Source of the DNA: an uncultured Candidatus Saccharibacteria bacterium
GTDB taxonomy: Bacteria > Patescibacteriota > UBA1384 > XYA2-FULL-43-10 > 1-14-0-10-43-13
Assembly: GCA_964419835.1 (NCBI GenBank)
Contig: CAYQPT010000003.1
Location: 799 to 64,798, forward strand
Direction: 5' to 3'
Length of the DNA: 64,000 nucleotides
Part shown: in pieces, positions 34,935 through 58,972 of the stretch
How positions within the stretch are numbered: the stretch's first letter is position 1
Layout: each line of letters begins with the position of its first letter
Made by a program: the position numbers and the translations under genes
Notes under the pieces: generated by a model
What the model saw: the letters and a program-made list of their open reading frames with translations, nothing else
The model's database searches: none
What the model was told of the DNA's origin: nothing

Positions 34935-34941
34935 GGAAATC

Positions 34942-38117: not shown

Positions 38118-38146
38118 TTGACATTTGAGCGCTAGTATGCTATAAT
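38118..38146 (+). promoter_or_regulatory. perfect consensus sigma70 promoter TTGACA-17 bp-TATAAT inside the GC-rich island
   Basis: TTGACA at 38118-38123 and TATAAT at 38141-38146, followed by a 120 nt GC-rich leader with a CCCCTAAGGGG hairpin. Confidence 0.55.
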
Positions 38147-38270
38147 ACTAAAGTAATCTGCTGGAGAAGGGTTCCCCTAAGGGGATCTCATCTCGGGCAG
38201 GCAACATTAGGCAACTGCTCGACATCACATCCGGCCCAGGTCGGATTTCCACGGAAGGACTGGTGAGAGA

Positions 38271-38627: not shown

Positions 38628-39603
38628 TTGGCCCGCAAGTGGCTTCGGTCACAGAGTAGTTTCCCGAGCGTGCTTTCACGCTCGGGAACATCCCCCTTTT
38701 CTTCTCATGTGTGGAATCAGTTGAATTCATCATGAGCAGAGAAAGAAACGTCTGCCGGTTAGGGGAAGAAAGATGAAATTGCATCGCATTATTTACGTCT
38801 TCATTGTCCTTTCCACCTTCCAGTATGCTCGTGTGTGGAACGGCGACCTTGCGTCGTATGTACGTTTACACACGAACAATCATGGATACGCGGCATTATC
38901 CGCGTTGCTGGCCTACCTGACAGAACTCGCTCTTGCGAGCTGGGTAATGGTAACAATAACCGCGCGCGAGCGACAGGACCAAGCCAGAGAGAAGGTCAGC
39001 AATGCTGGCCCTCGAGCGCCTGGCCCGAACGATGTAGCGCCTCTCTAAACTAGCAGAGTCGCTAACCGGCTTTGCATTGACTGCTTCCCGAGTGAGGTTA
39101 TGGAGAATTAGAATGCGAACAACAGTAGTTGTCGACTCAACGAGGAGAGATAGCTGCACAAATGGGACCGATTCCCCGACAATACTGGGGCTCAAAGAGG
39201 CCCTCGAACTCATCAAAGTGATGATCGAGGACACCGGTCAGATGTTCGCAGCTCTCCCTCTTACGTATGGCCAGAAAGGAGACTGGCCGACGAAGTACAT
39301 CATATATTCTGCGCACTATATGGCAGGATAATATGATAACTCGTCATGGACCGGTCCGCACGTACGGGTGCGGACCATTAACCTCGAGAATCGAATCATC
39401 CGCCAGCTGGCGGATTGGATTTTCGAGAGTTGATTAAATAACTGATTAGATCCCTTGTTCATCAAAATAGTTTGATGAAGTAGAGGACTAATTAAGAGAG
39501 ATATCCACACCTTACGAGGTGTGATTTTTTTACACAAAAATGTTTTGGGTGTAGAATTGGGGTGGAGAAATTCTCTGATAGTTCTACCGACAGGGGGTAC
39601 GAT

Positions 39604-39870
39604 ATGTTCACGGAAATGTCACGGGATCATTTCTATCTGCTAGTACAGACAGCCGTACTACTCATCTCTGCTCTGCTTGCTCTGCAGTACTTCGGACTCA
39701 ATGCGATTGTCCATTCTTGGCACACTTGGGTCTTAATGGGTGCTCTCGTGCTATGCTGGCTGAACGCCATACTTCGTAATGGCAGGCCACTGTCTTGGGA
39801 ACCGAGCGCACTCTTGATGTTCGTGCTGGTAGCTCTCAGCTGCATCCAGGTAGGGGTAGGCAAGCATTAG
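39604..39870 (+). CDS. hypothetical small membrane protein (GC-rich island ORF; the ORF extends upstream to 39562)
   Basis: Three hydrophobic helices. GGGGGT lies 5 nt before the ATG at 39604. Confidence 0.3.
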   Translation: MFTEMSRDHFYLLVQTAVLLISALLALQYFGLNAIVHSWHTWVLMGALVLCWLNAILRNGRPLSWEPSALLMFVLVALSCIQVGVGKH

Positions 39871-40232
39871 GTTCTCATTCTGCAGGCATTAGTAATCCTG
39901 CAAACCCGTCCTGCACTATTCAGTGCAGGTTCGAGGTTTGTAGCAGATTTGTACCATATGCGATAGGATCTCTCGCCTTCCTCGATCCACCCACCGGTGG
40001 GCTCGTAATGGGTCGGGATGACAGGGGGGGGTTGTTGGGGGAAACAATTGACAGCGCAGGAAAAATTATGTTATTATTGCTCTGAAAGAGGGGCGTTTTT
40101 GTTTTTACTACGTAAAAAAATTCTTAATTTTTAAGTATTAATTTCTAAATTAAGTCCAAAATTTATTAAAATATTTAAAATTGAATAAAAATTTAAAATT
40201 ATAAATTAGAAATTCAATTCCGAAGGAATTCC

Positions 40233-42305
40233 ATGGCACGAGATTACACCCTAGAAAAAGTTAGAAACTTTGGCACAATTGCCCACATTGACGCCGGTAA
40301 AACCACTGTTACTGAAGGCATTTTGTACATTTCTGGAAAAGTGCACAAAATCGGTGAGGTGCACGAAGGCGAAGCAACAATGGACTGGATGGAACAAGAG
40401 CGCGAACGTGGTATTACCATCACCTCTGCTGCTACAACCGCATTCTGGAAAGATAACCGTATTAATATCATTGACACTCCCGGTCACGTTGACTTCACAG
40501 TTGAAGTTGAACGGTCTCTTCGCGTACTCGACGGCGCTGTTGTTATTCTCGACGGAAAAATGGGTGTTGAGCCACAGTCGGAAACTGTTTGGCGACAGGC
40601 CGACAAATATCAAGTTCCTCGAATGTTTTTCTGCAATAAAATCAACCAAACCGGCGGTGATTTTTACCGCTCTTTGGACTCAGTTCATGAGAGATTATCT
40701 AAAAACGCCTACCCAATTCAGCTTCCAATCGGTTTCGAACAAGCCATCAACGGTGTTGTCGATTTAGTGGAAATGAAAGCATTAACCTATAAAGAATATA
40801 CAGACAAAGCCCTTACGGTTGGCGAAATTCCTGCCGATATGGTTGAAAAGGCCAACGAGTATAGAGAGAAATTAGTTGAAAAAGTTGTCGAGTATGATGA
40901 CGCAGCTATGGAAAAATACTTGGGCGGTGAAGAAATCTCTAACGACGAACTAAGGAAATTGATTCGAAAAGCTACCATTTCAGGCGAATTTTACCCAATG
41001 CTCGGTGGAGACGGAAGAGGCGTAATCGTTTCTGCCTTGCTTGATGCCATTGTTGATTATTTGCCTTCGCCGCTTGATGTTGTTCCTGCTAAAGCAACCG
41101 ATGCTAAAACCGGCGAAGAACTTGAGATCAAACCTACTGATACTGAGCCTCTTGCTGCTTTGGCATTCAAAGTTGCTTCAGACCCATTTGTTGGCAAATT
41201 GATCTTCTTCCGCGTTTATAGAGGCGTTATGAAAAAAGGATCCTACGTATTAAACGCAACTTCCGGAGAAAAAGAGAGAATCGGCCGAATTGTTCGATTA
41301 CACGCTAATCATCGGGAAGAAGTTGACGAAGTTTTTGCAGGTGAAATTGCCGCTGCGGTAGGACTGGCCAAGACAACCACAGGTGACACTCTTTGTGAAC
41401 TAACTGCTCCTGTAATTCTAGAAAAAATTGTATTTCCAGAGCCAGTTATTGATATTGCAATCGAGCCAAAAACTAAGGCCGACCAAGAGAAAATGGGTAT
41501 TGCTCTGCAGAGATTGGCCGAAGAAGATCCAACTTTTAGAGTTAGGAGCGATGAAGAAACAGGACAAACCATTATTGCCGGTATGGGCGAACTTCACCTT
41601 GAGATCATTGTCGACCGAATGAAACGCGAATTCAAAGTTGAAGCAAACGTTGGACAACCTCAGGTTGCTTTCCGTGAAACCTGCAAACAAGAAGTTACTC
41701 AAGAAGGTAAATATATCCGTCAGACCGGTGGCCGAGGACAATACGGTCATGTTTGGATCAAACTCATCCCTCAGGAAGCAGGTAAGGGCTTTGAATTTAT
41801 CAACAAAATTACCGGTGGTGCAATTCCTAAAGAGTTCATCAATCCTGTTCAGGCCGGCATTAAAGAAGCAATGGAACGGGGAGTAATGGCCGGTTATCCG
41901 GTTGTCGACGTTGCCGTTGAGCTTTACGATGGTTCCTTCCACGAAGTTGACTCTTCTGAAATCGCCTTTAAAATTGCCGCTTCGACAGCATTTCAAGATG
42001 GTTTTAAGAAAGCAGACCCTGTTATTCTAGAGCCAATCATGAAAGTTGAAGTAACAACTCCTGAAGAATCAATGGGTGATATTATCGGCGACCTTAACGC
42101 TAAGCGTGGTCAAATTCACAAAATGGAAGACCGAGCCAACTATAAAGTTATAAGAGCAGATGTACCACTTGCCTCAATGTTTGGTTATACTACAAACTTG
42201 CGCTCTATGTCACAGGGACGAGCATCTTCCGTAATGGAATTTTCACATTATGCCGAAGTTCCTGCGCATGTGGCAAAAGAAATCATCGAAAAACGATCAA
42301 AATAA
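40233..42305 (+). CDS. fusA: translation elongation factor G
   Basis: AHIDAGKTT and DTPGHVDF GTPase motifs and the full five-domain EF-G architecture. Confidence 0.97.
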
Positions 42306-42405
42306 TACGGATATACGGATTACAACAAGATATAGGGATGTACGGATAAATAACAAATCTGTAAATCTGTAAATCAGCGAAAGATCTGTAAATCTGTATT
42401 GCAGA
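42306..42405 (+). repeat. about 95 bp TACGGAT/ATCTGTA inverted heptamer-repeat element (after fusA)
   Basis: TACGGATATACGGAT...GATGTACGGATAA...ATCTGTAAATCTGTAAATCAGCGAAAGATCTGTAAATCTGTA. The arms pair with G-U wobbles only in the + strand RNA. Confidence 0.8.
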
Positions 42406-42409
42406 GATA

Positions 42410-42438
42410 TTGCATTATTATAGGTTATTTGTTATAAT
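42410..42438 (+). promoter_or_regulatory. sigma70-like promoter TTGCAT-17 bp-TATAAT upstream of tuf
   Basis: TTGCAT at 42410-42415 and TATAAT at 42433-42438; GGAAAGGAGA SD lies before the tuf ATG. Confidence 0.5.
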
Positions 42439-42520
42439 CAATCAGAAATATAAAATTAAATAAGTTACTAGTGCCCCACTTTATTAAGCGGGGTAATTCC
42501 CATTCGGGAAAGGAGAATTA

Positions 42521-43699
42521 ATGGCTGCAGAAAAATTCGAACGAACAAAGCCGCATGTAAACGTCGGTACCATCGGTCACGTTGACCACGGTAAGACTAC
42601 TTTGACTGCGGCTATTACTCACGTCCTTGCTAAAAAAGGCATGGCTGCTGAGAAGAAATTTGAGGACATTGACAATGCTCCTGAAGAGAAAGAGCGTGGT
42701 ATTACCATTGCTACTTCCCACCAAGAGTATGAAACAGACAAAAGACACTACGCTCACGTAGACTGTCCGGGCCACGCTGACTATGTTAAAAACATGATCA
42801 CCGGTGCTGCACAGATGGACGGCGCAATTTTGGTTGTTTCAGCTGCTGATGGTCCTATGCCTCAAACAAGAGAGCATATCCTTCTTGCAAACCAGATTGG
42901 TGTTCCGGCAATCGTTGTTTACCTAAACAAGTGCGATATGGTTGACGATGCTGAGCTTTTGGATCTTGTTGAGATGGAAGTAAGAGAACTTTTGACCAAG
43001 TACAAATATGATGGCGACAATGCCAAGATTATTCGCGGATCAGCCCTTAAGGCGCTTGAAGATGATGCAAATTACACAAAATCAATTGACGAACTTATGG
43101 ACGCCATTGATGAAGCTATTCCAGAACCAAAAAGAGAAATCGATAAACCTTTCTTGATGCCGGTTGAAGATGTCTTCTCAATCAAAGGCCGAGGCACAGT
43201 TGCCACAGGCAGAATTGAGCAGGGTATCGTAAAAATCGGTGATGAAGTTGAAATCGTTGGTATTAAAAAGACTTCCAAAACTGTTGTTACTGGTGTTGAA
43301 ATGTTTAAAAAGCAGCTCGACCAAGGTCAAGCCGGCGACAATGTCGGACTTTTGATTCGAGGTATTGAGCGAGAAGATATTGAAAGAGGTCAAGTTTTGG
43401 CCAAACCAGGTTCAATTACTCCTCACACAGAGTTTGATGCAGAAATTTACGCTTTGACCAAAGAGGAAGGCGGACGACACAGCCCATTCTTCAAAGGTTA
43501 CAAACCTCAATTCTACATCCGAACAACCGATGTAACCGGTGAAATCGAATTTGAGCAAGAAATGATCATGCCTGGCGATACTGCCAAAGTTAAAGTTAAA
43601 CTTATCCAGCCGATTGCTATGGACGAAGGACTTAAGTTTGCTATCAGAGAAGGTGGTAAAACAGTTGGTGCCGGCGTCGTAACAAAGATCAATAAATAA
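42521..43699 (+). CDS. tuf: translation elongation factor Tu
   Basis: [23 protein letters not shown] and NKCD motifs. Confidence 0.98.
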
Positions 43700-43790
43700 A
43701 TTTTCAGTTGTCAGTAAATCAGTAAATCGGTTGTCAGTTCTTATACTTACAACTGATTCACTTACAACTTACAACTAGTAATATCGTTCG
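43700..43790 (+). repeat. intercistronic imperfect palindrome of tandem heptamers (GTAAATCAG arm / CTTACAACT arm) after tuf
   Basis: CAGTTGTCAGTAAATCAGTAAATCGGTTGTCAG...ACTTACAACTGATTCACTTACAACTTACAACT. Confidence 0.75.
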
Positions 43791-43855
43791 CAGTGGGGCC
43801 TAATCTAAAATTGGGCTTCACACGAAAAGTATCAACATAATTCAAGAAAAAAGAA

Positions 43856-44179
43856 ATGCCAGAGAAAAGTGCAGTAAAACAGAAGATTAGGATCAAGCTT
43901 AAAGCTTATGATTATCGAATCATCGACAAATCAGCTGAGCAGATCATTCAAACCGCTATCCGATCAGGCGCAGCTGTCGCCGGACCGGTTCCGCTTCCTA
44001 CAGAAACAAGCAAGGTGACTGTTATCAAGTCTCCCCATGTTCACAAGGATTCACGCGAACAGTTTGAAATGAGAGTTCACAAACGATTGATTGATATCTT
44101 AAATCCTACTTCCAAAACAATCGATAACCTTATGGGGCTTGACCTTCCGCACGGCGTTGACATTGAGATCAAAATGTAG
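43856..44179 (+). CDS. rpsJ: 30S ribosomal protein S10
   Basis: [20 protein letters not shown]...GPVPLPT...[13 protein letters not shown]. Confidence 0.95.
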
Positions 44180-45188
44180 TATGCTGGTCTAAGCGATCAG
44201 TTATATTTGCGCTTAATAAAAAGGTCCTGGATATCGTCTCGCCAATCGGCGGATGGATCCAAGACATATTATTTATGTAGCAGGCAAATAAATGACGATT
44301 AGTCATTTATTGTTTGCCACTTAAGTAGGCAAAAACCTTAACATTATTACTGTCCTTAGGCCGTCTGGGATCCTGCATGACCAGGATGGATTGGGCGGCT
44401 CTCGCTCTCCCTTTATGGGGAGATCGCTGAGATTGAGCGTACAACGCTCTCTAAGGATGAGGTCTCGGAGATCTTACCTAAGCCCGGTGGCTGCTGGGGG
44501 ATCACTTCTTGGGTTTGAAATCTGAGACTTCAATTTACCACGCAGTGCGTGTAATATCGCCTGTGTGGGAGGGTTATGTGCTTACTTTTCCTGGATTGGA
44601 GACTCGCAAACGTTGCCTTTCAGATCAGGTAAGTATCATCACCCCCCGGAGAGCAGCCCACTTAGCGACCCTCGAGTTGCGGGTATAGGGGCGACTCTCT
44701 CACTCTTTCTGGCAGTTCTTGGAAAGATGAGAGTTTTGAGTAAGAGGCTCTACCCTCTCCGGGAAACAAGTTCCATCAGTCTTTCGCACAGCGTTTGTAT
44801 TGCGTAGTGCCGCTGTGGGGAAGGAAGCAGAATCAGCACTCAGGTCGGTTGATTCTGTCAAGTAGCAGGGTACTCCCCCTGCTGCTACCAAGGGGTATTA
44901 TACCCCTTCTGTCGGAGTAGGTGGTGCGTTCAGTGCTCCTGCACCACCTACTCAAAATCTTTAACAATTTATTGTTTGAACAAAGTGAGAACTAAAGCAA
45001 TTTACTTATCGCTCCGCTCGAAGAATAAATAGGATCCTTAAACAAGATACAGATCCCGAAACAAGTTTGGGATGACGCAAAGCGTCAGTTCAGGATGACG
45101 ACAAAATTATCATTCGCTATCTGTAAATTCGTAAAATTAGTAATCTCCTGCAGCAGCAGGATCCCGCTTCCAGCGGGGCATAGTCACG
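44180..45188 (+). ncRNA. about 1 kb GC-rich, ORF-free, hairpin-dense segment inserted between rpsJ and rplC: candidate large structured RNA or non-coding inserted element of unknown class
   Basis: No ORF longer than 80 aa on either strand, and none with protein-like composition. GC is about 50% against about 38% in the flanks. Many perfect stems: GGCAAATAAATGAC/GTCATTTATT-TTTGCC at 44280-44318, GAGTAGGTGGTGC/GCACCACCTACTC at 44908-44950, AGCAGGG/CCCTGCT, AAGGGG/CCCCTT and GAGCG/CGCTC. Confidence 0.3.
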
Positions 45189-45935
45189 ATGAAATTCATA
45201 TTAGCAAGAAAAATTGGGATGACACGCGTATTCGACCAAGACGGCCGAAGTTTTGCAGTTACTAAAATTGCCGCTTTGCCTTGCTCTATCTCACAGGTTA
45301 AGGACAAAGAGAAAGACAAATACAAAGCAGTTCAAGTTTCCGCCTATAAAGGCGAGACCTCGCCCGTTAAGGGCGGGAGTGCCATCAAAAGGAAAACCGT
45401 GAAGATTGCTGAATTCAAAGAGCAAAACAGTAAAAGATATAAAATGGGTGAAGATGTTAACCTGAAACAGTTTAAGAAAGACGAAATGGTAACTGTTGAA
45501 GGCACAGGAAAAGGCAAAGGTTTTGCCGGTACAGTTAAACGACATGGTTTTGCCATGGGTCCTGTTTCACACGGCTCAAAGAACATTCGAAAGCCCGGTT
45601 CAATCGGCGGCGGATATCCACAAAGAGTCGTAAAAGGACGAAAAATGGCCGGACGGATGGGTGGACAAAATGTTACTGTTAAAAACCTAAAAATTGTTGA
45701 TGTAGATGACCAGTTTATCTTGATTGCAGGAAGCATTCCCGGACCAAACAAATCAATCGTAAAAGTTTATGGCAAAGGCGAAAAAGCCGAAGAAGTAATT
45801 GACCACGCAGCCGAGGAAGAAAAATTGGCACAGGAAAAGATGCTTGAAGCTGACAAAGAAGCCAAAGAGGAGAAGAAAGAAGATCAAGTTGTGAGTGAAG
45901 CTTCACCGGTCGAAGAGTCAACAGAAGATAAATAA
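45189..45935 (+). CDS. rplC: 50S ribosomal protein L3 with a K/E-rich C-terminal extension
   Basis: MKFILARKIGMTRVFD...TVEGTGKGKGFAGTVKRHGF. Confidence 0.95.
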   Translation: MKFILARKIGMTRVFDQDGRSFAVTKIAALPCSISQVKDKEKDKYKAVQVSAYKGETSPVKGGSAIKRKTVKIAEFKEQNSKRYKMGEDVNLKQFKKDEMVTVEGTGKGKGFAGTVKRHGFAMGPVSHGSKNIRKPGSIGGGYPQRVVKGRKMAGRMGGQNVTVKNLKIVDVDDQFILIAGSIPGPNKSIVKVYGKGEKAEEVIDHAAEEEKLAQEKMLEADKEAKEEKKEDQVVSEASPVEESTEDK

Positions 45936-46012
45936 TCGTAGCAGGTATCAGGTAGCAGGTATTATGCAACCTCCTGATACATACTACCTAATACATTATA
46001 CGAAACAAGAAA

Positions 46013-46687
46013 ATGAAAGTATCAGTTTTTACAAAATCGGGTGAGAAAAAAGAAGATTTGACACTGTCAAACATATTCGGCGTAGAAGTTAGCGGAAAAG
46101 CGGCTACTCTTTATATTAATTATTTGCGTGCAGCGCTCAGGTTTCCTGTTGCAAACACAAAAAACCGAGGCGAGGTATCTGGCGGTGGACGCAAACCTTA
46201 CAGACAAAAAGGTACTGGTAATGCTCGAGCCGGTTCAAGCCGTTCCCCTCTATGGGTTGGCGGTGGTGTAACATTTGGCCCGACAAACGACCAGAACTTT
46301 CACAAAAGAATCAATTCAAGAGAGAAAAGACGGGTTATCCTAGGTCTTATTTCGGAGTTGATTAAAGACAACAAAATGATTGTCTTGGAAGGAATTTCCG
46401 AGGAAATCAAAAAGACTAAAGAAGCAGCACAAATTTTATCCAGCGTTAAAGCCGAAGGTAAAGTTTCAGTAATCCTGTCCAAGGAAAACGGCACAGCATA
46501 TGTATCTTTCAGAAACATTGCCGGTGTTAAAATCATGAGCCCTTCAAAACTGGACATGATTTACCTGACATCTTCCGATAAAGTTGTTGTTTCAAAAGAA
46601 GCACTTGCACAATTGGAAAGTATTTTTACCCCAAAAGACAAGTCACTTTCAGATTCAACGGAAATAGAAAAAGGAGAGCATAAGTAA
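46013..46687 (+). CDS. rplD: 50S ribosomal protein L4
   Basis: [21 protein letters not shown] motif. Confidence 0.95.
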
Positions 46688-46761
46688 ATCAGTAAATCAG
46701 TTGTCAGTAAATCAGATACAAAACTTACAACTTATTCACTTACAACTTACAACTTAAAATC
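46688..46761 (+). repeat. intercistronic heptamer-repeat palindrome (GTAAATCAG / CTTACAACT family) after rplD
   Basis: ATCAGTAAATCAGTTGTCAGTAAATCAG...AACTTACAACTTATTCACTTACAACTTACAACTT. Confidence 0.75.
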
Positions 46762-47121
46762 ATGAGTAATATCATCAAAAAAGTATTAGTTTCAGAAAAG
46801 AGTTTTAGAGATGCCACTTTAGGCAAATATACTTTTGTTGTTGACTCTGGCGCCGATAAAGAAGGCATTGCTAGAATGTGCGAAAGATTGTTTAATGTAA
46901 CTGTTCTTTCTGTTAATTCAATGAATGTTATGGGTAAAGTTAAGACCACCAAACGGATCAAAGGAAGAAGAAGCGATTTCAAAAAAGTCATCTTGACTCT
47001 AAAACCTGGAGACAAAATAGATTTATTTGAAACAGAAGACAAAGAGGACAAGAAAAAAGACAAAAAGGCAGAAAAGAAACTAGAAAAGTCAAAAGTTAAA
47101 GATAAAGATAAGGCAAAATAA
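46762..47121 (+). CDS. rplW: 50S ribosomal protein L23 with a lysine-rich C-terminal extension
   Basis: VLVSEKS...KYTFVVDSGADKEGIARMCERLFNVTVLSVNSMN, followed by a KKDKKAEKKLEKSKVKDKDKAK tail. Confidence 0.9.
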   Translation: MSNIIKKVLVSEKSFRDATLGKYTFVVDSGADKEGIARMCERLFNVTVLSVNSMNVMGKVKTTKRIKGRRSDFKKVILTLKPGDKIDLFETEDKEDKKKDKKAEKKLEKSKVKDKDKAK

Positions 47122-47206
47122 TTAAGCTGTAGTATGTATAAGGTATCATGTATTAGGCGGTTTTCGTCCCTACTACTTACTACCTACTACTTACTACCTA
47201 CTAAGA

Positions 47207-48043
47207 ATGGCACTTCGAATCGTAAAACCTACCGGAAATGCTCGAAGACAGATGTCTGTCACTAATTTTTCGTCTCTTGATAAAAATCCAAAGAGAATCA
47301 AAAGCTTAACTTTCGGCGTTAAGAGAATTTCAGGTAGAAACAGTGCCGGTCAGCTTGTTGTTAGAAGAAGAGGCGGCGGAGCCAAAAAGCTTTACAGAAT
47401 GGTTGATTTTTCCAGAGTTTCTCATATGGGCGAAAAAGCAACCGTAATCGGTATAGAATACGATCCAAACAGAACTGCTCATATTGCACTTATTCAGTAC
47501 GAATCAGGTGAAAAATCATATATTTTAGCGCCTAATGGTCTGGAAAAAGGCAAAGATGTAGTTTGCGACGAAAAGACTTTGGTAAAAACCGGAAATTGCA
47601 TGAAGATTAAAAACATTCCGGTTTCAACTCAAATTCACAATGTCGAATTGGTAAATGGCAAAGGTGGTCAAATATGCCGCGGTGCTGGTAGTTTCGCAAC
47701 ACTTCTTGGTGTTGACGGAAAATATGCCCAGCTTCGAATGCCATCGGGTGAGATTAGAAAGGTTCTGGCGGAAAATTTCGCTTCTATTGGTATTGTGTCC
47801 AACTTGGATCACAGTAACATTAAAATCGGAAAAGCTGGCAGAACACGTTACATGGGAATTCGTCCTTCCGTTCGCGGTAAGGCAATGAACCCTTGCGATC
47901 ATCCACATGGTGGTGGTGAAGGCGGTACCTCAATCGGTATGTCGCATCCAAAGACTCCATGGGGTGCTCCAGCGCTTGGTCCAAGAACACGAAACAAGAA
48001 GAAACCTAATGCCAAGTTGGTATTAAACAGAAGGAAGAAATAA
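47207..48043 (+). CDS. rplB: 50S ribosomal protein L2
   Basis: C-terminal [28 protein letters not shown]. Confidence 0.97.
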
Positions 48044-48330
48044 TGTCCAGATCACTCAAAAAAGGCCCATTTATTGATGAAAAGTTGATGAAGAAGGTTT
48101 TGAAAGCGAATTCGACAAATGATCGAAAACCGATTAAGACCTGGGCAAGATTTTCTACTATTACCCCTGAAATGGTTGGTTTAACCTTCGCAGTTCACAA
48201 TGGTAAAGATCACCTTCCCGTATTCGTTGTTGAGGACATGGTTGGTTATAAGCTGGGTGAATTTTCTCCTACGAGAAAGTTTAGAAGCCACGGCGGTAAG
48301 ATGGCCAAAGAACAAGCTAAGGGAAAGTAA
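48043..48330 (+). CDS. rpsS: 30S ribosomal protein S19
   Basis: [15 protein letters not shown]...[14 protein letters not shown]; overlaps rplB by 1 nt. Confidence 0.95.
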
Positions 48331-48429
48331 ATATTAATCAAGTAGTCAGTAAATCAGTTGTCAGTAAATCAGCAGATATAAAACTTACAACTTATTCACT
48401 TACAACTTACAACTTACAACTGAAATATT
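48331..48429 (+). repeat. intercistronic heptamer-repeat palindrome (GTAAATCAG / CTTACAACT family) after rpsS
   Basis: AGTAGTCAGTAAATCAGTTGTCAGTAAATCAGCAG...AAACTTACAACTTATTCACTTACAACTTACAACTTACAACTG. Confidence 0.75.
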
Positions 48430-48840
48430 ATGGAAATCAAAGTAAAAAGTTTATATTTGAAAGCATCACCCTTCAAAGTCAGACCGGCATTGCATGGTCT
48501 TTTAGGGCAAAATGCACAGAAAGCTTATGTTGCGCTTAGGTTTACAAATAAAAAAGGCGCAGGGTTCATGGCGGGACTTTTAAAGTCAGCAATTGCCATT
48601 GGCAAAGAAAACGACCTTGACCTTGATAAACTTTACATTAAATCAGTTAACTGCACCGAAGGCCCAAGATTAAAGAGAAGACAGATTAAGGCAAGAGGCC
48701 GTTCTGACGCTATACAGAAGAGAATGTGTCACTTGAATCTTATTATTTCAGATATTGCCGACCAAAAGATTAAAGAGAAGAAGCCGGAAGTTAAAAAAGT
48801 TAAAGAAAAACCCGCTAAGAAACCAGCAGTAAAAAGCTAA
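48430..48840 (+). CDS. rplV: 50S ribosomal protein L22
   Basis: L22 family sequence with a K/P-rich C-terminal tail. Confidence 0.9.
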   Translation: MEIKVKSLYLKASPFKVRPALHGLLGQNAQKAYVALRFTNKKGAGFMAGLLKSAIAIGKENDLDLDKLYIKSVNCTEGPRLKRRQIKARGRSDAIQKRMCHLNLIISDIADQKIKEKKPEVKKVKEKPAKKPAVKS

Positions 48841-48847
48841 GGAAATT

Positions 48848-49486
48848 ATGGGACAAAAAGTCAATCCAACATCAATGCGACTGAAGATCAACGAGAGCTG
48901 GAAATCTCTCTGGTTTGGCGGACAAAATTACGCCGACAACCTTATATCTGACTTGAAAATCAGAAAAATGTTGGAAACACGGCTTAAAGAAGCATCACTT
49001 TCTGAGATTATCATCCGACGAGATGCAAATAAGGTTACAATTGACATTCATTCCGGTAGACCCGGTGTTATCATCGGACGAGGCGGAGCAGGTACAGATG
49101 AATTGAAGAAAATACTTCAGAAAAGCTTAACCGGACGAGTTCAGATAAACATCATTGAAGTCAAAAAGCCCGATGCAGATGCCAGCATAATCGCACAAAA
49201 TGTTGCCTCCCAGATTGAAAGAAGAATTCCATTCCGAAGAGCAATCAAGCAGGCAATTGAGAAAGCAAAGGAATCCGGAGTTCAAGGTATTAAAATCCTT
49301 GTCTCAGGACGATTAAACGGTGCAGACATTGCAAGGTCAGAAAAAAATTCCTTCGGAACAGTTCCGCTTTCAATGTTTAAGAGCAATATTGAGTTCAAAC
49401 ATATCCAAGCCCATACCACTTTCGGTGTAATTGGAGTCAAAGTCTGGGTGTACAAGGGCGAACGAGGAATGAAAGAAGAAGCTTAA
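48848..49486 (+). CDS. rpsC: 30S ribosomal protein S3
   Basis: MGQKVNPTSMRL, KH domain and the GRPGVIIGRGG motif. Confidence 0.95.
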   Translation: MGQKVNPTSMRLKINESWKSLWFGGQNYADNLISDLKIRKMLETRLKEASLSEIIIRRDANKVTIDIHSGRPGVIIGRGGAGTDELKKILQKSLTGRVQINIIEVKKPDADASIIAQNVASQIERRIPFRRAIKQAIEKAKESGVQGIKILVSGRLNGADIARSEKNSFGTVPLSMFKSNIEFKHIQAHTTFGVIGVKVWVYKGERGMKEEA

Positions 49487-49580
49487 ATACAAATATACGG
49501 ATTTATAAACAAGATATACAGATGTACGGATAATCTGTAAATCTGTAAATCCGAGCAAGATCCGTAAATCGGTATAAAGG
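49487..49580 (+). repeat. about 95 bp TACGGAT/ATCTGTA inverted heptamer-repeat element (after rpsC)
   Basis: ATACGGATTTATAAACAAGATATACAGATGTACGGATAATCTGTAAATCTGTAAATCCGAGCAAGATCCGTAAATCGGTA. Confidence 0.8.
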
Positions 49581-49589
49581 AAATAAATC

Positions 49590-50003
49590 ATGTTGATGCC
49601 AAAGAAAATGAAATTTAGAAAGCAGCAAAGAGGAAGCAACCGCGGACAAGCAACTCGCGGCAATACTCTTGCTTTTGGTAAGTTTGGTATCAAGACATTG
49701 GAAGGCGGCTGGATTTCGGCAAGAGAGATAGAAGCTGCACGACGAGCCATGACAAGATATATTAAGCGTGGTGGTGAAGTTTGGATCCGCGTATTTCCCG
49801 ACAAGCCAGTTACCATGACTTCGGCAGAAGTGCCTATGGGATCAGGAAAAGGTGCCGTAGATCACTTTGTTGCAGTTATCCAACCCGGTAGAATATTATT
49901 TGAAATGGATGGCGTTGAAGGAATAGTTGCTAAAGAGGCAATGCGTTTAGCACAACACAAACTTTCTGTTAAGACCAAATTCGTCAGCAAGGAGGAAATG
50001 TGA
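49590..50003 (+). CDS. rplP: 50S ribosomal protein L16
   Basis: [15 protein letters not shown]... Confidence 0.95.
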
Positions 50004-50215
50004 AAGTAAAAGAACAAATGAAGAAATATAGAGAAATGAAAGATTCCGATCTTGCAGCTGAGCTTAAAAATATTAAGAAAGAATTAACTCTAGCTTCTCT
50101 TAAAGTTAAAGTCGGAAAGCAGTCAGATATTTCACAGGTAAAGAAAATTAAGAAGAATATCGCCAGAATTAATTCAATCGTTACTGAAAAAGCATACGGA
50201 GTATCAAATGAATAA
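50000..50215 (+). CDS. rpmC: 50S ribosomal protein L29
   Basis: Short coiled-coil protein with L29-like [15 protein letters not shown], directly after rplP (4 nt overlap). Confidence 0.85.
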
Positions 50216-50453
50216 TAAAGTCATAAGAACCAAAAAAGGCACAGTTGTTTCTGACAAGATGGATAAAACCGTTGTTGTTTCAGTTGACCGGATTAAAGAG
50301 CACCCACTTTACAAGAAGAAGTATACTGTAAGCAAGAAATATAAGGCAGACGATCAGGAAAATCAGTACAAAGTCGGCGATGTTGTTGAGATAACAGGAA
50401 CAAGACCGATCAGTAGAGATAAGAAGTATAAGGTATTAAGGAAGGTTAATTAG
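50208..50453 (+). CDS. rpsQ: 30S ribosomal protein S17
   Basis: [39 protein letters not shown]...[20 protein letters not shown]. Confidence 0.93.
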
Positions 50454-50551
50454 TAAGTTAGCCGGGTAGTCGGGTAGTTGGGTAACAGATGATGTTGAGA
50501 ACACTAACTAACAAACAAACCAACTAACCAACGATCAAACTAGGAATTATT
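50454..50551 (+). repeat. intercistronic repeat palindrome (GGTAGTYGG arm / AACTAAC arm) after rpsQ
   Basis: TTAGTAAGTTAGCCGGGTAGTCGGGTAGTTGGGTAAC...ACTAACTAACAAACAAACCAACTAACCAAC. Confidence 0.7.
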
Positions 50552-50917
50552 ATGATCCAGATGGGAACAAGATTAAAAGTTGCAGACAACACAGGTGCAA
50601 AAGAAATACAGTGCATCACTGTTCTTGGACGTGCAAAAAGAGATCAGGCACAGGTTGGCGATATTATTTCCGCATCAGTTAAAAGCGCAATTCCACGAGG
50701 CACAGTAAAGAAAAAGGAAGTTGTTAAGGCGGTTATTGTTCGCCAGAAAAAGCAAATTTCAAGAGAAGACGGCTCCTATATCAGTTTTTCAGAAAATGCA
50801 GCCGTTATCATTGACGATGCCGGCAATCCACGAGGAACACGTATCTTCGGGCCGATCCCACGAGAACTTCGAAGAGGATATATGAAGATAATTTCATTAG
50901 CACCGGAAGTATTATAA
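50552..50917 (+). CDS. rplN: 50S ribosomal protein L14
   Basis: [22 protein letters not shown]... Confidence 0.96.
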
Positions 50918-50999
50918 TCAGTAAATCAGTAAATAAGTAAATCAGTAAATAAGTTCAAAACAGACAACTGATTCACTGACAACTGACAACTAAAACAAC
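50918..50999 (+). repeat. intercistronic heptamer-repeat palindrome (GTAAATMAG / CTGACAACT family) after rplN
   Basis: CAGTAAATCAGTAAATAAGTAAATCAGTAAATAAG...CAACTGATTCACTGACAACTGACAACT. Confidence 0.75.
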
Positions 51000-51320
51000 A
51001 TGAAGATTAAAAAAAATGACAATGTAATGATCATCGCAGGCAAAGACAAAGGCAAAACCGGAGTCGTTGAGCGAGTTTTCCCATCAATGGGCAAACTGGT
51101 TGTCAAAGGAATTGCTTTGGCTAAGAAACATGTTAAGCCAAGCAAAAAAAATCCTTCAGGCGGTATCATTGATATAAATCAAAAAATACAAGCATCCAAC
51201 GCAATGGTAGTCTGCCCAAGCTGCGGCAAGCCAACCAGAGTTGGTTATAATGTTTCGGAAAAAGGTAAAATTCGCATCTGCAAAAAATGCAGCCAAAGCG
51301 TTGAAGGCGGGACTAAATAA
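51000..51320 (+). CDS. rplX: 50S ribosomal protein L24 carrying a CxxC...CxxC zinc-ribbon insertion
   Basis: KOW-type N-terminus (MKIKKNDNVMIIAGKDKGKTGVV) and a VVCPSCGKPTRVGYNVSEKGKIRICKKC four-cysteine motif. Confidence 0.85.
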   Translation: MKIKKNDNVMIIAGKDKGKTGVVERVFPSMGKLVVKGIALAKKHVKPSKKNPSGGIIDINQKIQASNAMVVCPSCGKPTRVGYNVSEKGKIRICKKCSQSVEGGTK

Positions 51321-51877
51321 TGGAAAAATTGATTGAAAAATACAATAAGGTTATCATTCCTGAGCTTAGAAAAGAATTGTCCAAGAAGAATATCATGGAA
51401 GTTCCAAAGCTTTTAAAGGTTGTCGTTTCTACCGGTGTAGGAGATTTTAAAGAAGACGACAAAGCAATCGCAAAGATTGGCGCCGAGCTTTCAAAGCTAA
51501 CGGGAATGAAACCAAAGATAAACCGTTCCAGAAAAGCGGTATCCGCCTTTAAGCTTAGAATCGGTCAGCCGGTTGGGTTGACAGTCACCCTGCGCGGCGA
51601 GAAGATGTATGACTTTCTTGATCGATTGGTCAATGTATCATTTCCACGCGTACGAGACTTCCGCGGATTGCCCATGAAAGCTTTTGACGGACAAGGCAAT
51701 TATTCGATCGGTATTAAAGACTACTCGATTTTCCCTGAAATAAAATACGAAGATATTACAAACGCATTCGGAATTCAGATTAATGTAAGAACAAACTGCA
51801 AAAACACTGAGGATGCAAAGGCATTACTAGTTAAACTAGGTTTTCCATTCGAGAAAAATAAGGAGCAAAATGGCTAA
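51320..51877 (+). CDS. rplE: 50S ribosomal protein L5
   Basis: L5 family sequence ([10 protein letters not shown]...[11 protein letters not shown]). Confidence 0.95.
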
Positions 51878-52055
51878 GAAATCAATGATTGTTAAGGCGA
51901 ATAGAAAGCCAAAATATTCATCCCGTATCATACGTCGATGTAAAGTTTGCGGCCGACCAAGAGCATACATCAGAAAATTTAGCCTTTGCCGTATTTGTTT
52001 CAGAGAATTTGCATCAAAGGGCGAAATTCCAGGTGTATCAAAGTCGAGCTGGTAA
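51870..52055 (+). CDS. rpsZ: 30S ribosomal protein S14 type Z (zinc-binding C+ form)
   Basis: 61 aa with CKVCGRP...CRIC; overlaps the rplE end. Confidence 0.93.
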
Positions 52056-52156
52056 TAGAGGATAAGTAAATCAGTAAATAAGTTGTAAGTAAATAAGTTC
52101 TTGTAAATAAACAGTAACCGAGAACTGACAACTGACAACTGACAACTAAGGAAATT
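52056..52156 (+). repeat. intercistronic heptamer-repeat palindrome (GTAAATAAG / CTGACAACT family) after rpsZ
   Basis: AAGTAAATCAGTAAATAAGTTGTAAGTAAATAAG...GAACTGACAACTGACAACTGACAACT. Confidence 0.75.
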
Positions 52157-52537
52157 ATGACAGATCACATCGCAGATTTATTGGTAAGAATCAAAAATGC
52201 TTCACTTGTTAAAAAGTACGAAGTCACTCTTCCATTTTCAAAAATGAAAGAGGCAATTTTGAAAATCCTTGAACGCGAAGAATTCATTAAGAATATTGAA
52301 GTTTCAGGAGAGGCCAATAAAAAAGTGATTAGCTTCCGAATTTCACATACAAAAACCCCAACCCACATCAAACAGATTTCAAAGCCGGGACAGAGAATCT
52401 ATGTCAAAAGCAAAGATATCCCAAATCCGCTTAGAGGTCTAGGACTTGTAATAATCTCAACCCCAAAGGGTGTTATTACTGCAAAAGAGGCCTCAAAAAC
52501 AGGATTGGGCGGGGAATTAATCTGTGAAATCTGGTAG
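52157..52537 (+). CDS. rpsH: 30S ribosomal protein S8
   Basis: MTDHIADLLVRIKNA... Confidence 0.95.
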   Translation: MTDHIADLLVRIKNASLVKKYEVTLPFSKMKEAILKILEREEFIKNIEVSGEANKKVISFRISHTKTPTHIKQISKPGQRIYVKSKDIPNPLRGLGLVIISTPKGVITAKEASKTGLGGELICEIW

Positions 52538-52631
52538 AGAGCAAGTAGTCGGTAAATCAGTAGTCAGTAAATCAGTAATAAATTAATAACTTACAACTTA
52601 TTCACTTACAACTGACAACTAAGGAAAAAAA
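52538..52631 (+). repeat. intercistronic heptamer-repeat palindrome (GTAAATCAG / CTTACAACT family) after rpsH
   Basis: AGTAGTCGGTAAATCAGTAGTCAGTAAATCAG...AACTTACAACTTATTCACTTACAACTGACAACT. Confidence 0.75.
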
Positions 52632-53168
52632 ATGAGCAGAATAGGCAAAAGACCAATAAAAATTAAAGAGGGCGTAACAATTGAAATTACGCCATCAAAA
52701 GTAGTCGCTAAAAAAGATCAAAATTCTTTGGAATTAAAGATTCCCGAAGGAATAGTTGTCAAGCAAGACGGGAACGATCTTTTGGTTACAAGAAAAGACG
52801 AATCGAAGGATTTAAGATCAAAACATGGTCTAATTGCACGACTGCTCAAGAACATTATTACCGGAGTCCACGAAGGTTTCGTTCGAGAGCTTGAGTTCAA
52901 GGGAACTGGTTACAGGGCATCTGTTAATGGCAATGAAATCGTCCTAAACATGGGCTATTCGCACGAAATTACTCTTCCTATTGGAGAAGGCATTACAGTG
53001 CAAGTTAAGAAAAATTCAATCATATTGGCCGGAATGGATAAAGAGCGGCTTGGCGCACTAGCAGCGTCTATCCGAGAAGTTAGACCGCCGGAAGTTTATA
53101 AGGGCAAGGGCATTAAATATAAAGAAGAGTTGATTAGGCGAAAGGCCGGCAAGAAAGCCGCAGCATAA
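52632..53168 (+). CDS. rplF: 50S ribosomal protein L6
   Basis: MSRIGKRPIKI...; two L6 repeats. Confidence 0.95.
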   Translation: MSRIGKRPIKIKEGVTIEITPSKVVAKKDQNSLELKIPEGIVVKQDGNDLLVTRKDESKDLRSKHGLIARLLKNIITGVHEGFVRELEFKGTGYRASVNGNEIVLNMGYSHEITLPIGEGITVQVKKNSIILAGMDKERLGALAASIREVRPPEVYKGKGIKYKEELIRRKAGKKAAA

Positions 53169-53262
53169 AAATACAGATATACGGATAATGACAAGATATA
53201 CGGATGTACGGATGATCTGTAAATCTGTAAATCCGCGAAAGATCTGTAAATCCGTATTAAGG
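53169..53262 (+). repeat. about 95 bp TACGGAT/ATCTGTA inverted heptamer-repeat element (after rplF)
   Basis: ATACAGATATACGGATAATGACAAGATATACGGATGTACGGATGATCTGTAAATCTGTAAATCCGCGAAAGATCTGTAAATCCGTA. Confidence 0.8.
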
Positions 53263-53270
53263 AATACATT

Positions 53271-53585
53271 ATGGCACAAGAGTTTAATAAAAAATTTACT
53301 GGCACCGACGCAAGACCTAGAGTCTCGGTTTTTAGATCAAACGCCGCAATTTGCGCTCAGATTATCAATGATGGTACTGGCAAGACTTTGGTATCTGCCT
53401 CATCCAAAGAAATCAAAGAGAGTGGAAAACCGGTAGAAAAAGCTTCGCTTTGCGGAAAACTCCTTGCTAAGAAAGCCAAAGAAAAAAAGATTGAGGCAAT
53501 CGTTTTTGATAGAAATGGTTACCGATACCATGGCAGGGTAAAAGCTCTAGCAGAAGGTATGCGTGAGGGCGGACTTAAGTTTTAG
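53271..53585 (+). CDS. rplR: 50S ribosomal protein L18
   Basis: L18 family sequence (ARPRVSVFRSNAAICAQIIND...GYRYHGRVKALAEGMREGGLKF). Confidence 0.93.
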   Translation: MAQEFNKKFTGTDARPRVSVFRSNAAICAQIINDGTGKTLVSASSKEIKESGKPVEKASLCGKLLAKKAKEKKIEAIVFDRNGYRYHGRVKALAEGMREGGLKF

Positions 53586-53673
53586 TAAATCAGTAAATCA
53601 GTAAATCAGTAAATCAGCACTATTAAAATAGTAACTGAGAACTGAGAACTGACAACTTACAACTAAGGATAAT
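53586..53673 (+). repeat. intercistronic heptamer-repeat palindrome (AGTAAATC x 4 / CTGAGAACT family) after rplR
   Basis: AGTAAATCAGTAAATCAGTAAATCAGTAAATCAG...AACTGAGAACTGAGAACTGACAACTTACAACT. Confidence 0.75.
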
Positions 53674-54321
53674 ATGACAGCAGCAGAAAAAAACATAATG
53701 AGACAACGCGGTTCTTACGAAAAAAGAGAACCAAAAGAATATGACGAAAAGGTGATTGAAGTCGCCAGAGTTTCGCGTGTGGTTAAAGGTGGTCGAAGAA
53801 TCCGGTTTCGAGCTTTAGTTGTGATTGGTAATCACAACGGAAAAGTCGGGATGGGTATTGCAAAAGCAACCGAGGTTTCAGAAGCAGTCAGGAAAGCCAC
53901 TACTTACGCTAAAAAGCACATTATTATAGTCCCAATCATTAGCGGCACTATTCCTTATGAAATCACCATGAAACATGGTGGAGCACGAGTGCTTTTAAAA
54001 CCCGCAACCGAAGGTACTTCAGTTGTTGCCGGTGGAAGCATAAGGTCTGTAGCTGAACTAGCTGGTATTTCAGATCTTCTGTCAAAATCACTTGGAAGCT
54101 CAAACAAGATTAACTGTGTAACCGCCACCATTAAAGCGCTTTCATCCTTCAATCCCGACATTGTTGAAAAGGTAAGAAAAGCTTCAGAACGATCAAAGCC
54201 AAAGGGCGAGCCGGTTGTGGTCAAAGAGGCGCCTGTCCCCGAAGAAAAAGTGGAAGAGAAAGTTGCTCCGGAGAAACCAAAAAAGTCAGTAAAAGCTAAA
54301 AAGGCAGCTGCCAAGAAATAG
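53674..54321 (+). CDS. rpsE: 30S ribosomal protein S5 with K/E-rich N- and C-terminal extensions; rplO follows directly, with no L30 gene between
   Basis: VIEVARVSRVVKGGRRIRFRALVVIGNHNGKVGMGIAKATEV... The C-terminal tail is rich in K, E, P and A. Confidence 0.95.
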   Translation: MTAAEKNIMRQRGSYEKREPKEYDEKVIEVARVSRVVKGGRRIRFRALVVIGNHNGKVGMGIAKATEVSEAVRKATTYAKKHIIIVPIISGTIPYEITMKHGGARVLLKPATEGTSVVAGGSIRSVAELAGISDLLSKSLGSSNKINCVTATIKALSSFNPDIVEKVRKASERSKPKGEPVVVKEAPVPEEKVEEKVAPEKPKKSVKAKKAAAKK

Positions 54322-54421
54322 ATTAGTTAATCAGTTAAACTGTTAATCGGTTAACTGGTGACAATACTCAAGAATTATCAATAAACCATTTAACTATCTA
54401 ACAATTTAACCATTCAACATT

Positions 54422-54952
54422 ATGAAGCTAATATCAGTACAAACTAAAAATAAGAAAAGACCTGGCCGAGGCATTTCAGCCGGTCAAGGTAAAACTGCAG
54501 GTCGCGGAACAAAAGGACAAAAGTCGCGAAGTGGTTTTAATATTCCAAATCGACATGAAGGTGGACAGACCCCGCTTTCAATGAGACTGCCTAAGTTGCC
54601 AGGTTTTAAATCCCTAAAGAAAAAAGCGGCAATCATTTCACTCGATCAAATCTCAAAAGAATTCAAAGATAAAGAAATTGTTTCTCTGGATGCTTTGGAG
54701 AAAAAAGGCCTGATCAAGACGGGCGAGAAAGCCAAAATCCTTAACAATGGTAAGCTCACAGTTAAAGTTACTCTTGGTGAAGGCGTCAAAGTGTCAGAGA
54801 AGATTGCAAATCTATTCGCTTCGGATCTTCCGGTTGTTAAGGCAGAAACTCTGCCTGAGAAAGCAAAAGGATTAGCACCTGAAGTCAAAAAAGACGAAAC
54901 TCCGGTTAAAGTCAAAAAAGCCCCTGCCAAAAAGCCAACAGCCAAAGCCTAA
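54422..54952 (+). CDS. rplO: 50S ribosomal protein L15
   Basis: RPGRGISAGQGKTAGRGTKGQKSRSG motif. Confidence 0.93.
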   Translation: MKLISVQTKNKKRPGRGISAGQGKTAGRGTKGQKSRSGFNIPNRHEGGQTPLSMRLPKLPGFKSLKKKAAIISLDQISKEFKDKEIVSLDALEKKGLIKTGEKAKILNNGKLTVKVTLGEGVKVSEKIANLFASDLPVVKAETLPEKAKGLAPEVKKDETPVKVKKAPAKKPTAKA

Positions 54953-55169
54953 TGCTCCCCTTAGGGGAAAAACCACAAAATAGATATTCCAGTTATACAT
55001 AAATAAAAATGCTCCAGCGAATGGAGTATTTTTATTTGGCAAATATGACTATATAGCTCAGAAAAAGGACTTTTTAGATAATGCTCAGCTTGATTTAATT
55101 AAAGCAAACCTCTAAGTTGTTAAACCGTACGCTCATGATGGAGCGGTTTTTAATAAGGAAAGGTTTGTT

Positions 55170-55565
55170 ATGAGTGAAGCTATTAAAGAAAAACTAGGGA
55201 TGTTCCGCAATACTTTCTTTCGGGAAAAGTACCGTTTTGATCAGGGAAACGCTTTTTTGGTTTTTTTAAACTTTACAATGCTCGTAACTTCTCTGGTTAA
55301 ACAAAGTCATGGCAATCAAAGCTTGGTTGCTTGGTATGTGGTTTTGGGGTTTACGGGAACATGGATTTTGGGCTATTTCTTAGACAAAATTGTCCGCGTA
55401 CAGGACGCATCTGAAAGAGTGGCTTTTAAGAGAAGCCCGATTTGGAAAAGAAATTTTGATCATCATAGCCAAATAAATCGTAAGATTGAGAACATTAATA
55501 AGAAAATCGATAATATTCATAAATTGGTTGAGGACATCAAAAAGCTTGAAAAAGAAAATCAATAA
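55170..55565 (+). CDS. hypothetical small membrane protein (2 TM plus a C-terminal coiled coil) inserted between rplO and secY
   Basis: Two hydrophobic helices, then RKIENINKKIDNIHKLVEDIKKLEKENQ. Confidence 0.5.
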   Translation: MSEAIKEKLGMFRNTFFREKYRFDQGNAFLVFLNFTMLVTSLVKQSHGNQSLVAWYVVLGFTGTWILGYFLDKIVRVQDASERVAFKRSPIWKRNFDHHSQINRKIENINKKIDNIHKLVEDIKKLEKENQ

Positions 55566-58796: not shown

Positions 58797-58972
58797 TGAC
58801 GCAATTTAAAATTTATAATTTTTAATTCAAAATTGTTGTGGACACTGCGTGTTGGCACTAGAGTAATCCAGCCACTGAGTGGCTTCAAAAGCATCTATCT
58901 ACTAACTACTATCTACTAACCACTAAATGTGTTGACTTATACCATAAATTGTGTTAAATTTTATAATGAAAT

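Follow-up and report, generated by a model that had tools for sequence, protein, structure and literature searches.

Ribosomal-protein operons rank with the most conserved and compact regions of bacterial genomes, and the genomes of Patescibacteria are strongly reduced. It is in such operons that the window, by which we mean the whole 64,000-nucleotide (nt) stretch of contig CAYQPT010000003.1 from an uncultured Candidatus Saccharibacteria bacterium, carries a repeated element of ~95 nt, with TACGGAT units in its left arm and ATCTGTA units in its right arm. What is this element, and what keeps it between these genes? A preliminary description took it to be a hairpin probably selected in the sense mRNA. 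We find three full copies and one left-half copy, all on the + strand. A full copy follows fusA (42303, or 42306, to 42402), a second occupies the rpsC–rplP junction (49487–49578) and a third the rplF–rplR junction (53169–53260), with pairwise identities of 85–89%; after rpsG (35419–35465) there is the left half only, with units ATACGGATATACGGAT..AGATATACAGAT. Of the four intergenic copies first described, three stand as full elements and the one then called partial as a left half; the consensus given then agrees with the MAFFT consensus of the copies. Matches to the left-arm pattern ATACGGATNTACGGAT with at most two mismatches number 10 in the window against 0.11 expected, and those to the right-arm pattern ATCTGTAAATCTGTAAATC with at most three mismatches number 12 against 0.06 expected; no additional copies of the element were found outside junctions in the window.

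The genes that flank the copies were identified by Pfam as those for S12, S7, EF-G, EF-Tu, L16, L6 and L18, with S3 confirmed separately; the closest named relatives of this S3 protein are 'Patescibacteria group' and Berkelbacteria. The stem of the element starts 0–4 nt past the stop codon and, in two copies, ends 1–2 nt before an AAGGA Shine–Dalgarno (SD) sequence: in the copy at 49487 it opens immediately past the stop codon and closes beside the SD, and in the copy at 53169 the SD adjoins the stem end. The fusA copy has four TACGGAT-type units and four ATCTGTA units, with a stem base that includes the stop codon, and is followed by ~115 nt of tuf upstream region; 3′ of the truncated copy come an AT-rich stretch and then a hairpin with a T-run at ~35472–35510. 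The location at the 3′ ends of cistrons that had been proposed thus holds for all copies, but 'just before the next SD' is true only of those at 49487 and 53169, the fusA copy being ~115 nt off and the rpsG copy truncated.

The answer we favour, to which we give about an even chance, is that the element would be one family of clade-specific, copy-and-paste palindromic repeats, akin in behaviour to repetitive extragenic palindromes (REPs) and REPINs or to miniature inverted-repeat transposable elements (MITEs), and tolerated by folding away. Such elements would be copied between, and lost from, intercistronic junctions. There they occupy exactly the space that separates a stop codon from the ribosome-binding site or start codon of the following gene, and invariably face the same way; they would be co-transcribed with the operon. 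In the mRNA the insert would fold back, in the case of the TACGGAT/ATCTGTA element (family 1) into a hairpin of ~31 bp with 7-bp blocks, A·A mismatches and one internal loop; ~90 extra bases would be looped out, and the stop codon would stay near the start site that follows, so that inserts could be tolerated in essential, tightly coupled operons. The hairpin would above all be a palindrome at the level of DNA, as which the element propagates and by which its arms are kept alike; if it also protects mRNA 3′ ends, directs RNase III-type processing or couples translation, that effect would come second.

Family 1 does not stand alone. In the rpoBC, str, S10, spc and alpha operons of the window hardly a junction lacks an analogous spacer, as seen with Tandem Repeats Finder and by direct reading; in these spacers an 8-nt tandem array makes up one arm and a complementary 7–8-nt array the other. 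In the comparison with relatives, whose loci are all centred on one operon cluster with gene starts taken from open reading frames (ORFs), junction lengths are bimodal, being either at most 50 nt or ~67–107 nt (rarely to 122 nt), and 56 of 83 spacers group into 11 families, with members at non-orthologous junctions. We conclude that family 1 belongs to a set of 67–107-nt two-armed spacers that comprises at least 11 families in this Patescibacteria clade. The earlier view that the element is specific to its lineage is correct at clade level for the whole element, but fails for the ATCTGTAA octamer array taken by itself, since Bacteroidota commonly have it.

The occupancy of the junctions changes readily between relatives. 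In L202, whose S3 is 88% identical to that of the window and whose operon-wide amino-acid identity is 0.84, the same genes are separated by −1 to 48 nt with no elements, which shows that the operon can function without them; L140 has few elements. At the rpsQ–rplN junction, L202, L139 and L140 have an overlapping TAATG, and the element found there measures 98 nt in the window, 95 nt in L002 and 100 nt in L001, with the last rpsQ codon altered. Between the window and L001 the identity at four-fold degenerate sites is 0.86, and the flanks of rpsS–rplV, rpsC–rplP and rplN–rplX match at 92–98% up to the stop and start codons (the last 60 nt of rpsQ at 88%); at six of the eight junctions compared the spacers are unrelated, with identities of 0.53–0.61 where random pairs give 0.57. 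Spacers that can be compared are identical among samples of the L001-type species (L001, L204, L205 and L207), and are thus not hypervariable within a population. Family sequence is kept well beyond neutral expectation: family 1 copies of the window and of L139 are 86–87% identical at different junctions, equal to the identity among copies within the window, when four-fold-site identity between the two genomes is only 0.50, and L203 carries a family 1 copy at yet another junction (rpsS–rplV). L140 has a 50-nt mini-version at its orthologous rpsH–rplF junction.

The dispensability of the elements, their gain at empty sites, their replacement at a rate faster than neutral, the conservation of families and the existence of nested and truncated forms together point to copy-and-paste dynamics, and the sequence of a family is probably constrained by whatever propagates or recognizes the elements. 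Their strict orientation, placement from stop to start, uniform length and enrichment in translation operons indicate a strong filter or a targeted mechanism. The simplest filter would be one in which only those inserts survive that fold away and leave the proximity of stop and start undisturbed.

A number of observations weigh against this reading. Placement from stop to start is strict, and unrelated families share a narrow range of lengths. Orientation is equally strict, similar spacers matching on the same strand in 123 of 127 pairs and strong pairs in 68 of 68; the Patescibacteria loci compared contain no minus-strand co-directional junctions, so that the orientations of transcription and replication are inseparable there. 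The class is enriched in translation-apparatus operons: for their junctions in the window the fold z averages −2.78 and lies below −2 in 10 of 19, as compared with a mean of −0.86 and 2 of 13 for other junctions. Uniform orientation, placement and length, together with this enrichment, exceed what a purely selfish element would predict; they would suit selection at the level of the host, or a mechanism that is targeted. Moreover, some elements persist in place at near-saturated divergence: at rpsH–rplF the window and L139 share 0.80 identity, and at rpsE–rplO L139 and L140 share 0.85. At rplW–rplB (window 47122–47206; L001 4123–4201; genomes 97% identical in amino-acid sequence) the left arm is identical and the right-arm unit CCTACTACTTACTA of the window has become CTACCAA in L001; a change confined to the right arm implies turnover of units in place and not replacement of the whole element. 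Finally, no transposase was detected by Pfam in 10 unannotated or uncertain ORFs of the window, and no direct repeats flank the spacers when occupied and empty junctions are compared, the spacer differing throughout and its edges being unfixed. There is no insertion sequence (IS) in the window, and the left flank of an rve-type gene at 19571 in L139 is unlike the element ends.

The strongest alternative is selection by the host on the sense mRNA, in which the element would serve as a barrier to 3′ exonucleases, an RNase III-type processing site or a translational coupler, and in which a sequence-specific factor may recognize the hairpin; in the coupling variant, a terminating ribosome would open the lower stem, which adjoins the following ribosome-binding site. 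We regard it as possible but rather unlikely. One point in its favour is the strong sense hairpin of family 1. Each arm comprises 2 + 2 units (TACRGAT on the left, ATCYGTA on the right) divided by an internal loop of ~8–10 by 6–8 nt, and the sense RNA is predicted to form an interrupted hairpin with A·A mismatches between its 7-bp blocks, whose upper stem, internal loop and lower stem resemble the RNase III sites of phage T7. For the copies at 42303, 49487 and 53169, in that order, the + strand folds with −31.7, −27.9 and −28.4 kcal/mol (z of −8.2, −6.5 and −5.5) and the − strand with −14.9, −25.2 and −21.4 kcal/mol (z of −1.7, −4.5 and −3.5). The better pairing of the + strand noted previously is therefore confirmed for all three full copies in the window, and extends to the shorter rpsS–rplV copy of L203 (S3 90% identical), which also has G·U pairs and folds with −20.7 kcal/mol in sense and −14.9 kcal/mol in antisense. 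The wobble pairing of UACGGAU with AUCUGUA is correct for the window copies too: at the variable position of their 12 unit pairs there are 8 G·U, 1 A-U, 1 G-C, 1 A·C and 1 A·G. RNAalifold keeps 31 pairs across four full family 1 copies, so that a loss of pairing among copies, which the preliminary description had held to count against a role in RNA, is not what is found.

The way in which these pairs vary is less favourable to the sense mRNA. Compensatory double changes, for which the preliminary description had proposed to look, occur at none of the 31 pairs in the four-copy alignment, and 4 of the 31 show one-sided changes between G·U, A-U and G-C. When L139 is included, the variable position of 16 unit pairs holds G·U in 8, A-U in 4, G-C in 1, A·C in 2 and A·G in 1; in two of the three cases in which the right arm has C the left arm has A, that is, a mismatch, and an A·C mismatch at the stem base is common to the two genomes. 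The copy in L139, at the rplV–rpsC junction, forms a perfect TACAGAT/ATCTGTA palindrome, with no difference between its strands in how well they fold (−33.4 and −34.4 kcal/mol). The G·U pair is thus best read as an inherited A-to-G variant, and most simply its occurrence would go back to the founder of the family rather than to many independent events.

The class as a whole was examined for strand preference in 74 spacers from 7 genomes. The better-folding strand is antisense in 54 and sense in 18, and predicted G·U pairs number 255 in antisense as compared with 145 in sense, an advantage that arises largely because the sense strand is A-rich. Measured against dinucleotide shuffles, sense strands average a z of −3.12 and antisense strands one of −3.36 (p = 0.11), with z < −2 in 50/74 and 57/74, respectively, and in 2/16 coding controls. 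For family 2, the commonest, neither strand yields a structure consistent with the alignment. Apart from family 1 in this genome, then, the spacers are palindromes at the DNA level and bear no sense-RNA signature.

In support of selection on the mRNA there remain the G·U pairs, which favour sense in two genomes, the reach of the stem from just past the stop to just before the SD, the enrichment in translation operons with uniform lengths, and the conservation, above neutral, of families and of some orthologous elements. Copies in random orientation, which had also been named beforehand as telling against it, were not seen, orientation being uniform relative to transcription. Nevertheless, a close relative has the same genes entirely without elements, families are interchangeable at a single junction, no pair has undergone compensatory change, the L139 palindrome is neutral as to strand, the class lacks a sense bias, family 2 lacks a consensus structure, and the A·C mismatch at the stem base has been kept in two genomes. 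The claim that the element is selected as a sense-mRNA hairpin is not upheld by this evidence, and we draw from it the lesson for annotation that G-U asymmetry in one family is no evidence for selection at the RNA level.

A bolder reading, which we think unlikely, is that the spacers would be undescribed 'intercistronic hairpin cassettes' of a Patescibacteria clade, locked in orientation from stop to start and swapped faster than synonymous sites change, each family being held at ~86% identity between genomes with nearly saturated synonymous sites, implying a dedicated, sequence-specific machinery. If that were true, the machinery acting on translation-apparatus operons would be a mobilizing enzyme or an RNA-binding or RNA-processing factor, and the hairpins would take over the function that overlapping stop and start codons have in the coupling of compact relatives.

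We find it improbable that the arrays of octamers and heptamers (GUAAAUCW, UACRGAU and ACUUACA, for example), and not the hairpin, would be what matters, bound in RNA or DNA by a sequence-specific multi-site factor, with G-poor 3′ arms that might act as SD-independent enhancers of translation. It is consistent with this idea that units are conserved across genomes with near-saturated synonymous sites, that in 50 of the 74 occupied spacers the start codon is reached from the element without an intervening SD, and that G makes up 12–13% of positions −50 to −11 before the start codons of 43 genes but 22% of the whole window. A single base separates TGTAAATC, the octamer in the right arm of family 1, from AGTAAATC, that in the left arm of family 2, and the GTAAATCW array is on the + (sense) strand in 12 of 12 cases, though it forms the 3′ arm of the former family and the 5′ arm of the latter; its matches lie at 42360, 43713, 46683, 49536, 50920–50936, 52065, 53218 and 53584–53600, and its TAA each 8 nt gives stop codons in three frames. 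A scan of a genome collection with the right-arm 19-mer returned at least 118 loci (L004–L121); the matches listed are mostly from Bacteroidota, with other phyla besides and none from Patescibacteria, and in nearly all of them (ATCTGTAA)n is a plain tandem array without TACGGAT arms. Among these listed matches a gene starts within 120 nt downstream on the same strand in 38 of 103, as compared with 16 of 103 for the opposite orientation. The hosts include the Prevotellaceae metagenome-assembled genomes Cd354_bin9, Cc175_bin61 and Pcl387_bin40 and Flavobacterium sp. PMG_257, and the arrays often stand in multi-block sets of differing 8-nt units with the GC-rich palindromes GGCGTCAGCC and GCTGGCGCGCCAGC between them. 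No candidate factor was identified, however, and with many unrelated units at equivalent positions there is no one motif on which the junctions depend; L202 does without the elements, and a complementarity of the arms far above that of shuffled controls would be left unexplained.

It is very doubtful that the elements would be hairpin sites in single-stranded DNA for a strand-specific recombinase or transposase, whether of the IS200/IS605 and REP-associated tyrosine transposase (RAYT) kind or attC-like, the orientation of which would follow replication. Such sites would account for uniform orientation within co-oriented operons, for families that share structure and not sequence, for a length range like that of REPINs and attC sites, and for a bottom strand that across the class often folds as well or better. 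Against them, no Y1, HUH or integrase gene was found nearby among the 10 ORFs scanned, family 1 favours the top strand and other families the bottom, leaving no single preferred strand, and the attC core order RYYYAAC...GTTRRRY is absent. Replication slippage in place in AT-rich spacers, with a palindrome that is incidental or kept by arm-to-arm conversion, is most improbable and as a sole explanation is largely refuted by multi-copy families, for while it would suit tandem arms of variable unit number, the right-arm turnover at rplW–rplB and the mini-version in L140, it leaves unexplained both the nested composites and ~95-nt elements that are 85–89% identical across junctions and 86–87% across genomes.

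If the elements are indeed copy-and-paste palindromes, they have counterparts elsewhere. The REPs, bacterial interspersed mosaic elements and REPINs of Gammaproteobacteria are mobilized by RAYT transposases, the REPINs forming hairpins of ~100 nt; REPs stabilize the upstream mRNA and, within ~15 nt of the stop codon, also affect translation of the upstream gene. The elements described here are alike in being short, imperfect, extragenic palindromes in many copies, co-transcribed at cistron 3′ ends, and, at ~95 nt, in hairpin length. They are unlike REPs in that their arms are arrays of 7–8-nt tandem units, in that a genome has many unrelated families, in the lack of a GTAG-type motif at either end of the family 1 sequences, in their great density inside the ribosomal-protein operons of a reduced genome with no RAYT in the 64-kb window, and in their single orientation, REPs being found either way round and also in inverted pairs. 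Correia elements of Neisseria and enterobacterial repetitive intergenic consensus (ERIC) elements form hairpins that can be cleaved by RNase III or that alter mRNA stability. They too are MITE-like intergenic palindromes, of ~100–150 nt, that are co-transcribed and present in some strains and absent from others, and polymorphism of this kind at orthologous sites is the MITE feature that the present elements display. Yet there is no sequence similarity, no detectable target-site duplication, and the arms of tandem units, the Patescibacteria lineage, the strict stop-to-start placement and the strict orientation all differ.

Short tandemly repeated repetitive (STRR) sequences of heterocystous cyanobacteria are intergenic tandem heptamers, with several families per genome; by description they are simple direct arrays, unlike the paired complementary arms that span a junction here, and their units and lineage differ. 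In phage T7 early mRNA, RNase III cuts at a hairpin between each pair of cistrons and leaves a 3′ hairpin on the upstream message; the arrangement of upper stem, internal loop and lower stem between cistrons is shared, but the present elements are multi-family, fast-changing and dispensable. Integron attC sites were rejected, as family 1 lacks their motifs, the GTTAATC/AACCATTT family has the order reversed and the flanks are core ribosomal-protein genes. TIGR (tandem interspaced guide RNA) arrays are long, consist of dual-spacer units of ~36 nt and adjoin a gene for Tas, which has a Nop domain (PMC12045711). They too were set aside, with units here of 7–8 nt, a single hairpin between ribosomal-protein genes and no adjacent Tas gene.

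Searches of databases yielded no described counterpart. Rfam gave no match at gathering score over the whole window, and at E-values up to 1 only two chance-level matches in 42000–55200; neither tRNA nor tmRNA was found. A terminator scan reported no family 1 copy, and we rejected intrinsic terminators: no U-run directly follows the stems, UUGCAG or UUAAGGA coming next. The apex 22-mer had no match in a metagenome scan, and a protein-anchored metagenome scan returned 17 loci, mostly distant. None of 59 left-arm matches in viral contigs had a paired right arm, and these we take as chance or coding matches. CsrA-type GGA sites were rejected, as GGA is not conserved and L139 has TACAGAT; PUF-like UGUANAUA sites were considered and not adopted. 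Searches of the literature turned up nothing relevant on such elements in Patescibacteria or in ribosomal-protein operons.

The other spacers of the window are likewise on the + strand. Family 2, with (AGTAAATC)n in the left arm and (AACTTAC/AACTGAC)n in the right, occupies eight junctions: after tuf (43700–43790), rplD–rplW (46688–46761), rpsS–rplV (48331–48429), rplN–rplX (50918–50999), rpsN–rpsH (52056–52156), rpsH–rplF (52538–52631; orthologous to L139 13563–13646, 80% identity), rplR–rpsE (53586–53673) and rpsK–rpsD (60297–60384; names from gene order). A GTAGCAG/CCTACTA-type spacer is found at rplC–rplD (45936–46012), one of another flavour at rplW–rplB (47122–47206), a GGGTAGT/CTAACYA spacer at rpsQ–rplN (50454–50551), a GTTAATC/AACCATTT spacer at rpsE–rplO (54322–54421), the family of which is at other junctions in L001, and an GGTTAGTAG/CTAACCA spacer at rpsM–rpsK (59794–59888; names again from gene order). 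Two longer paralogous elements of GGTAACG/CGTAACC type, of ~130 nt and with CCGCCAGCTGGCGG at the apex, lie at rpoB–rpoC (30303–30458) and at rpsL–rpsG (34813–34941); a third copy, in L142 (2223–2336), occupies a different junction from both. The 14-nt palindrome CCGCCAGCTGGCGG also occurs at 22746 and 39400, making 5 matches where none is expected. G-free arrays of 7–8 nt (AATTCCT, CATTATT, AACCATTT, CTAACTA), without an obvious complementary arm, stand just 5′ of starts outside the main clusters, at 626–659, 11404–11435, 35573–35609, 58895–58926 and 62948–62976.

Nested forms were seen in L141 (S3 86% identical), where composites of 200–230 nt, at 3712–3883, 4721–4951, 5240–5473, 6597–6825, 8140–8350 and 8672–8871, carry an inner hairpin at the apex of an outer one; the modules also occur separately, the outer alone at 10793–10905 and mainly the inner at 9609–9781. 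In the GGACAGATTACAAATCAGAC...ATTAGTCATCTGT family (L139 9403–9499, 11932–12017, 14184–14272 and 15350–15441; L140 15092–15183) an SD-like AAAGGA lies just 5′ of the hairpin, no SD lies between hairpin and start codon, and the stem base is 8–10 nt from the ATG, so that the hairpin could bring a distant SD to the start codon. Such a split SD bridged by a hairpin, considered for the GGACAGAT family, has AAAGGA on the 5′ side in 5/5 copies; it was not retained, the minimum-energy fold partly pairing AAAGGA.

Two longer intervals deserve mention. The rpsJ–rplC spacer (44180–45188) is ~1 kb long with no gene called, short ORFs of 80 and 63 aa being left aside, and measures 593–1009 nt in all relatives (L001 1501–2287, L202 1333–1985, L139 5632–6404, L140 5955–6547, L141 1258–1879). 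Its first ~170 nt are conserved in six genomes and the rest is variable; it gave no Rfam match and no tRNA call, and T-arm-like strings GGTTCGAATCC are present in L001 and L140. It may be an undescribed structured RNA or leader. The rpsG–fusA gap of ~4.8 kb (35470–40232) holds a PEBP-family gene, a gene on the minus strand for an M50 protease with CBS domains, and GC-richer ORFs without a Pfam match; the truncated family 1 copy at its left edge suggests that a rearrangement or insertion took away the right arm.

The contrast between operons filled with hairpins and those of a close relative that is empty of them amounts to a natural experiment on how much intercistronic structure is tolerated by translationally coupled operons and how small palindromic repeats spread. 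Should a specific factor prove to process or bind the elements, they would represent a lineage-specific control of operon expression in organisms not yet accessible to genetics.

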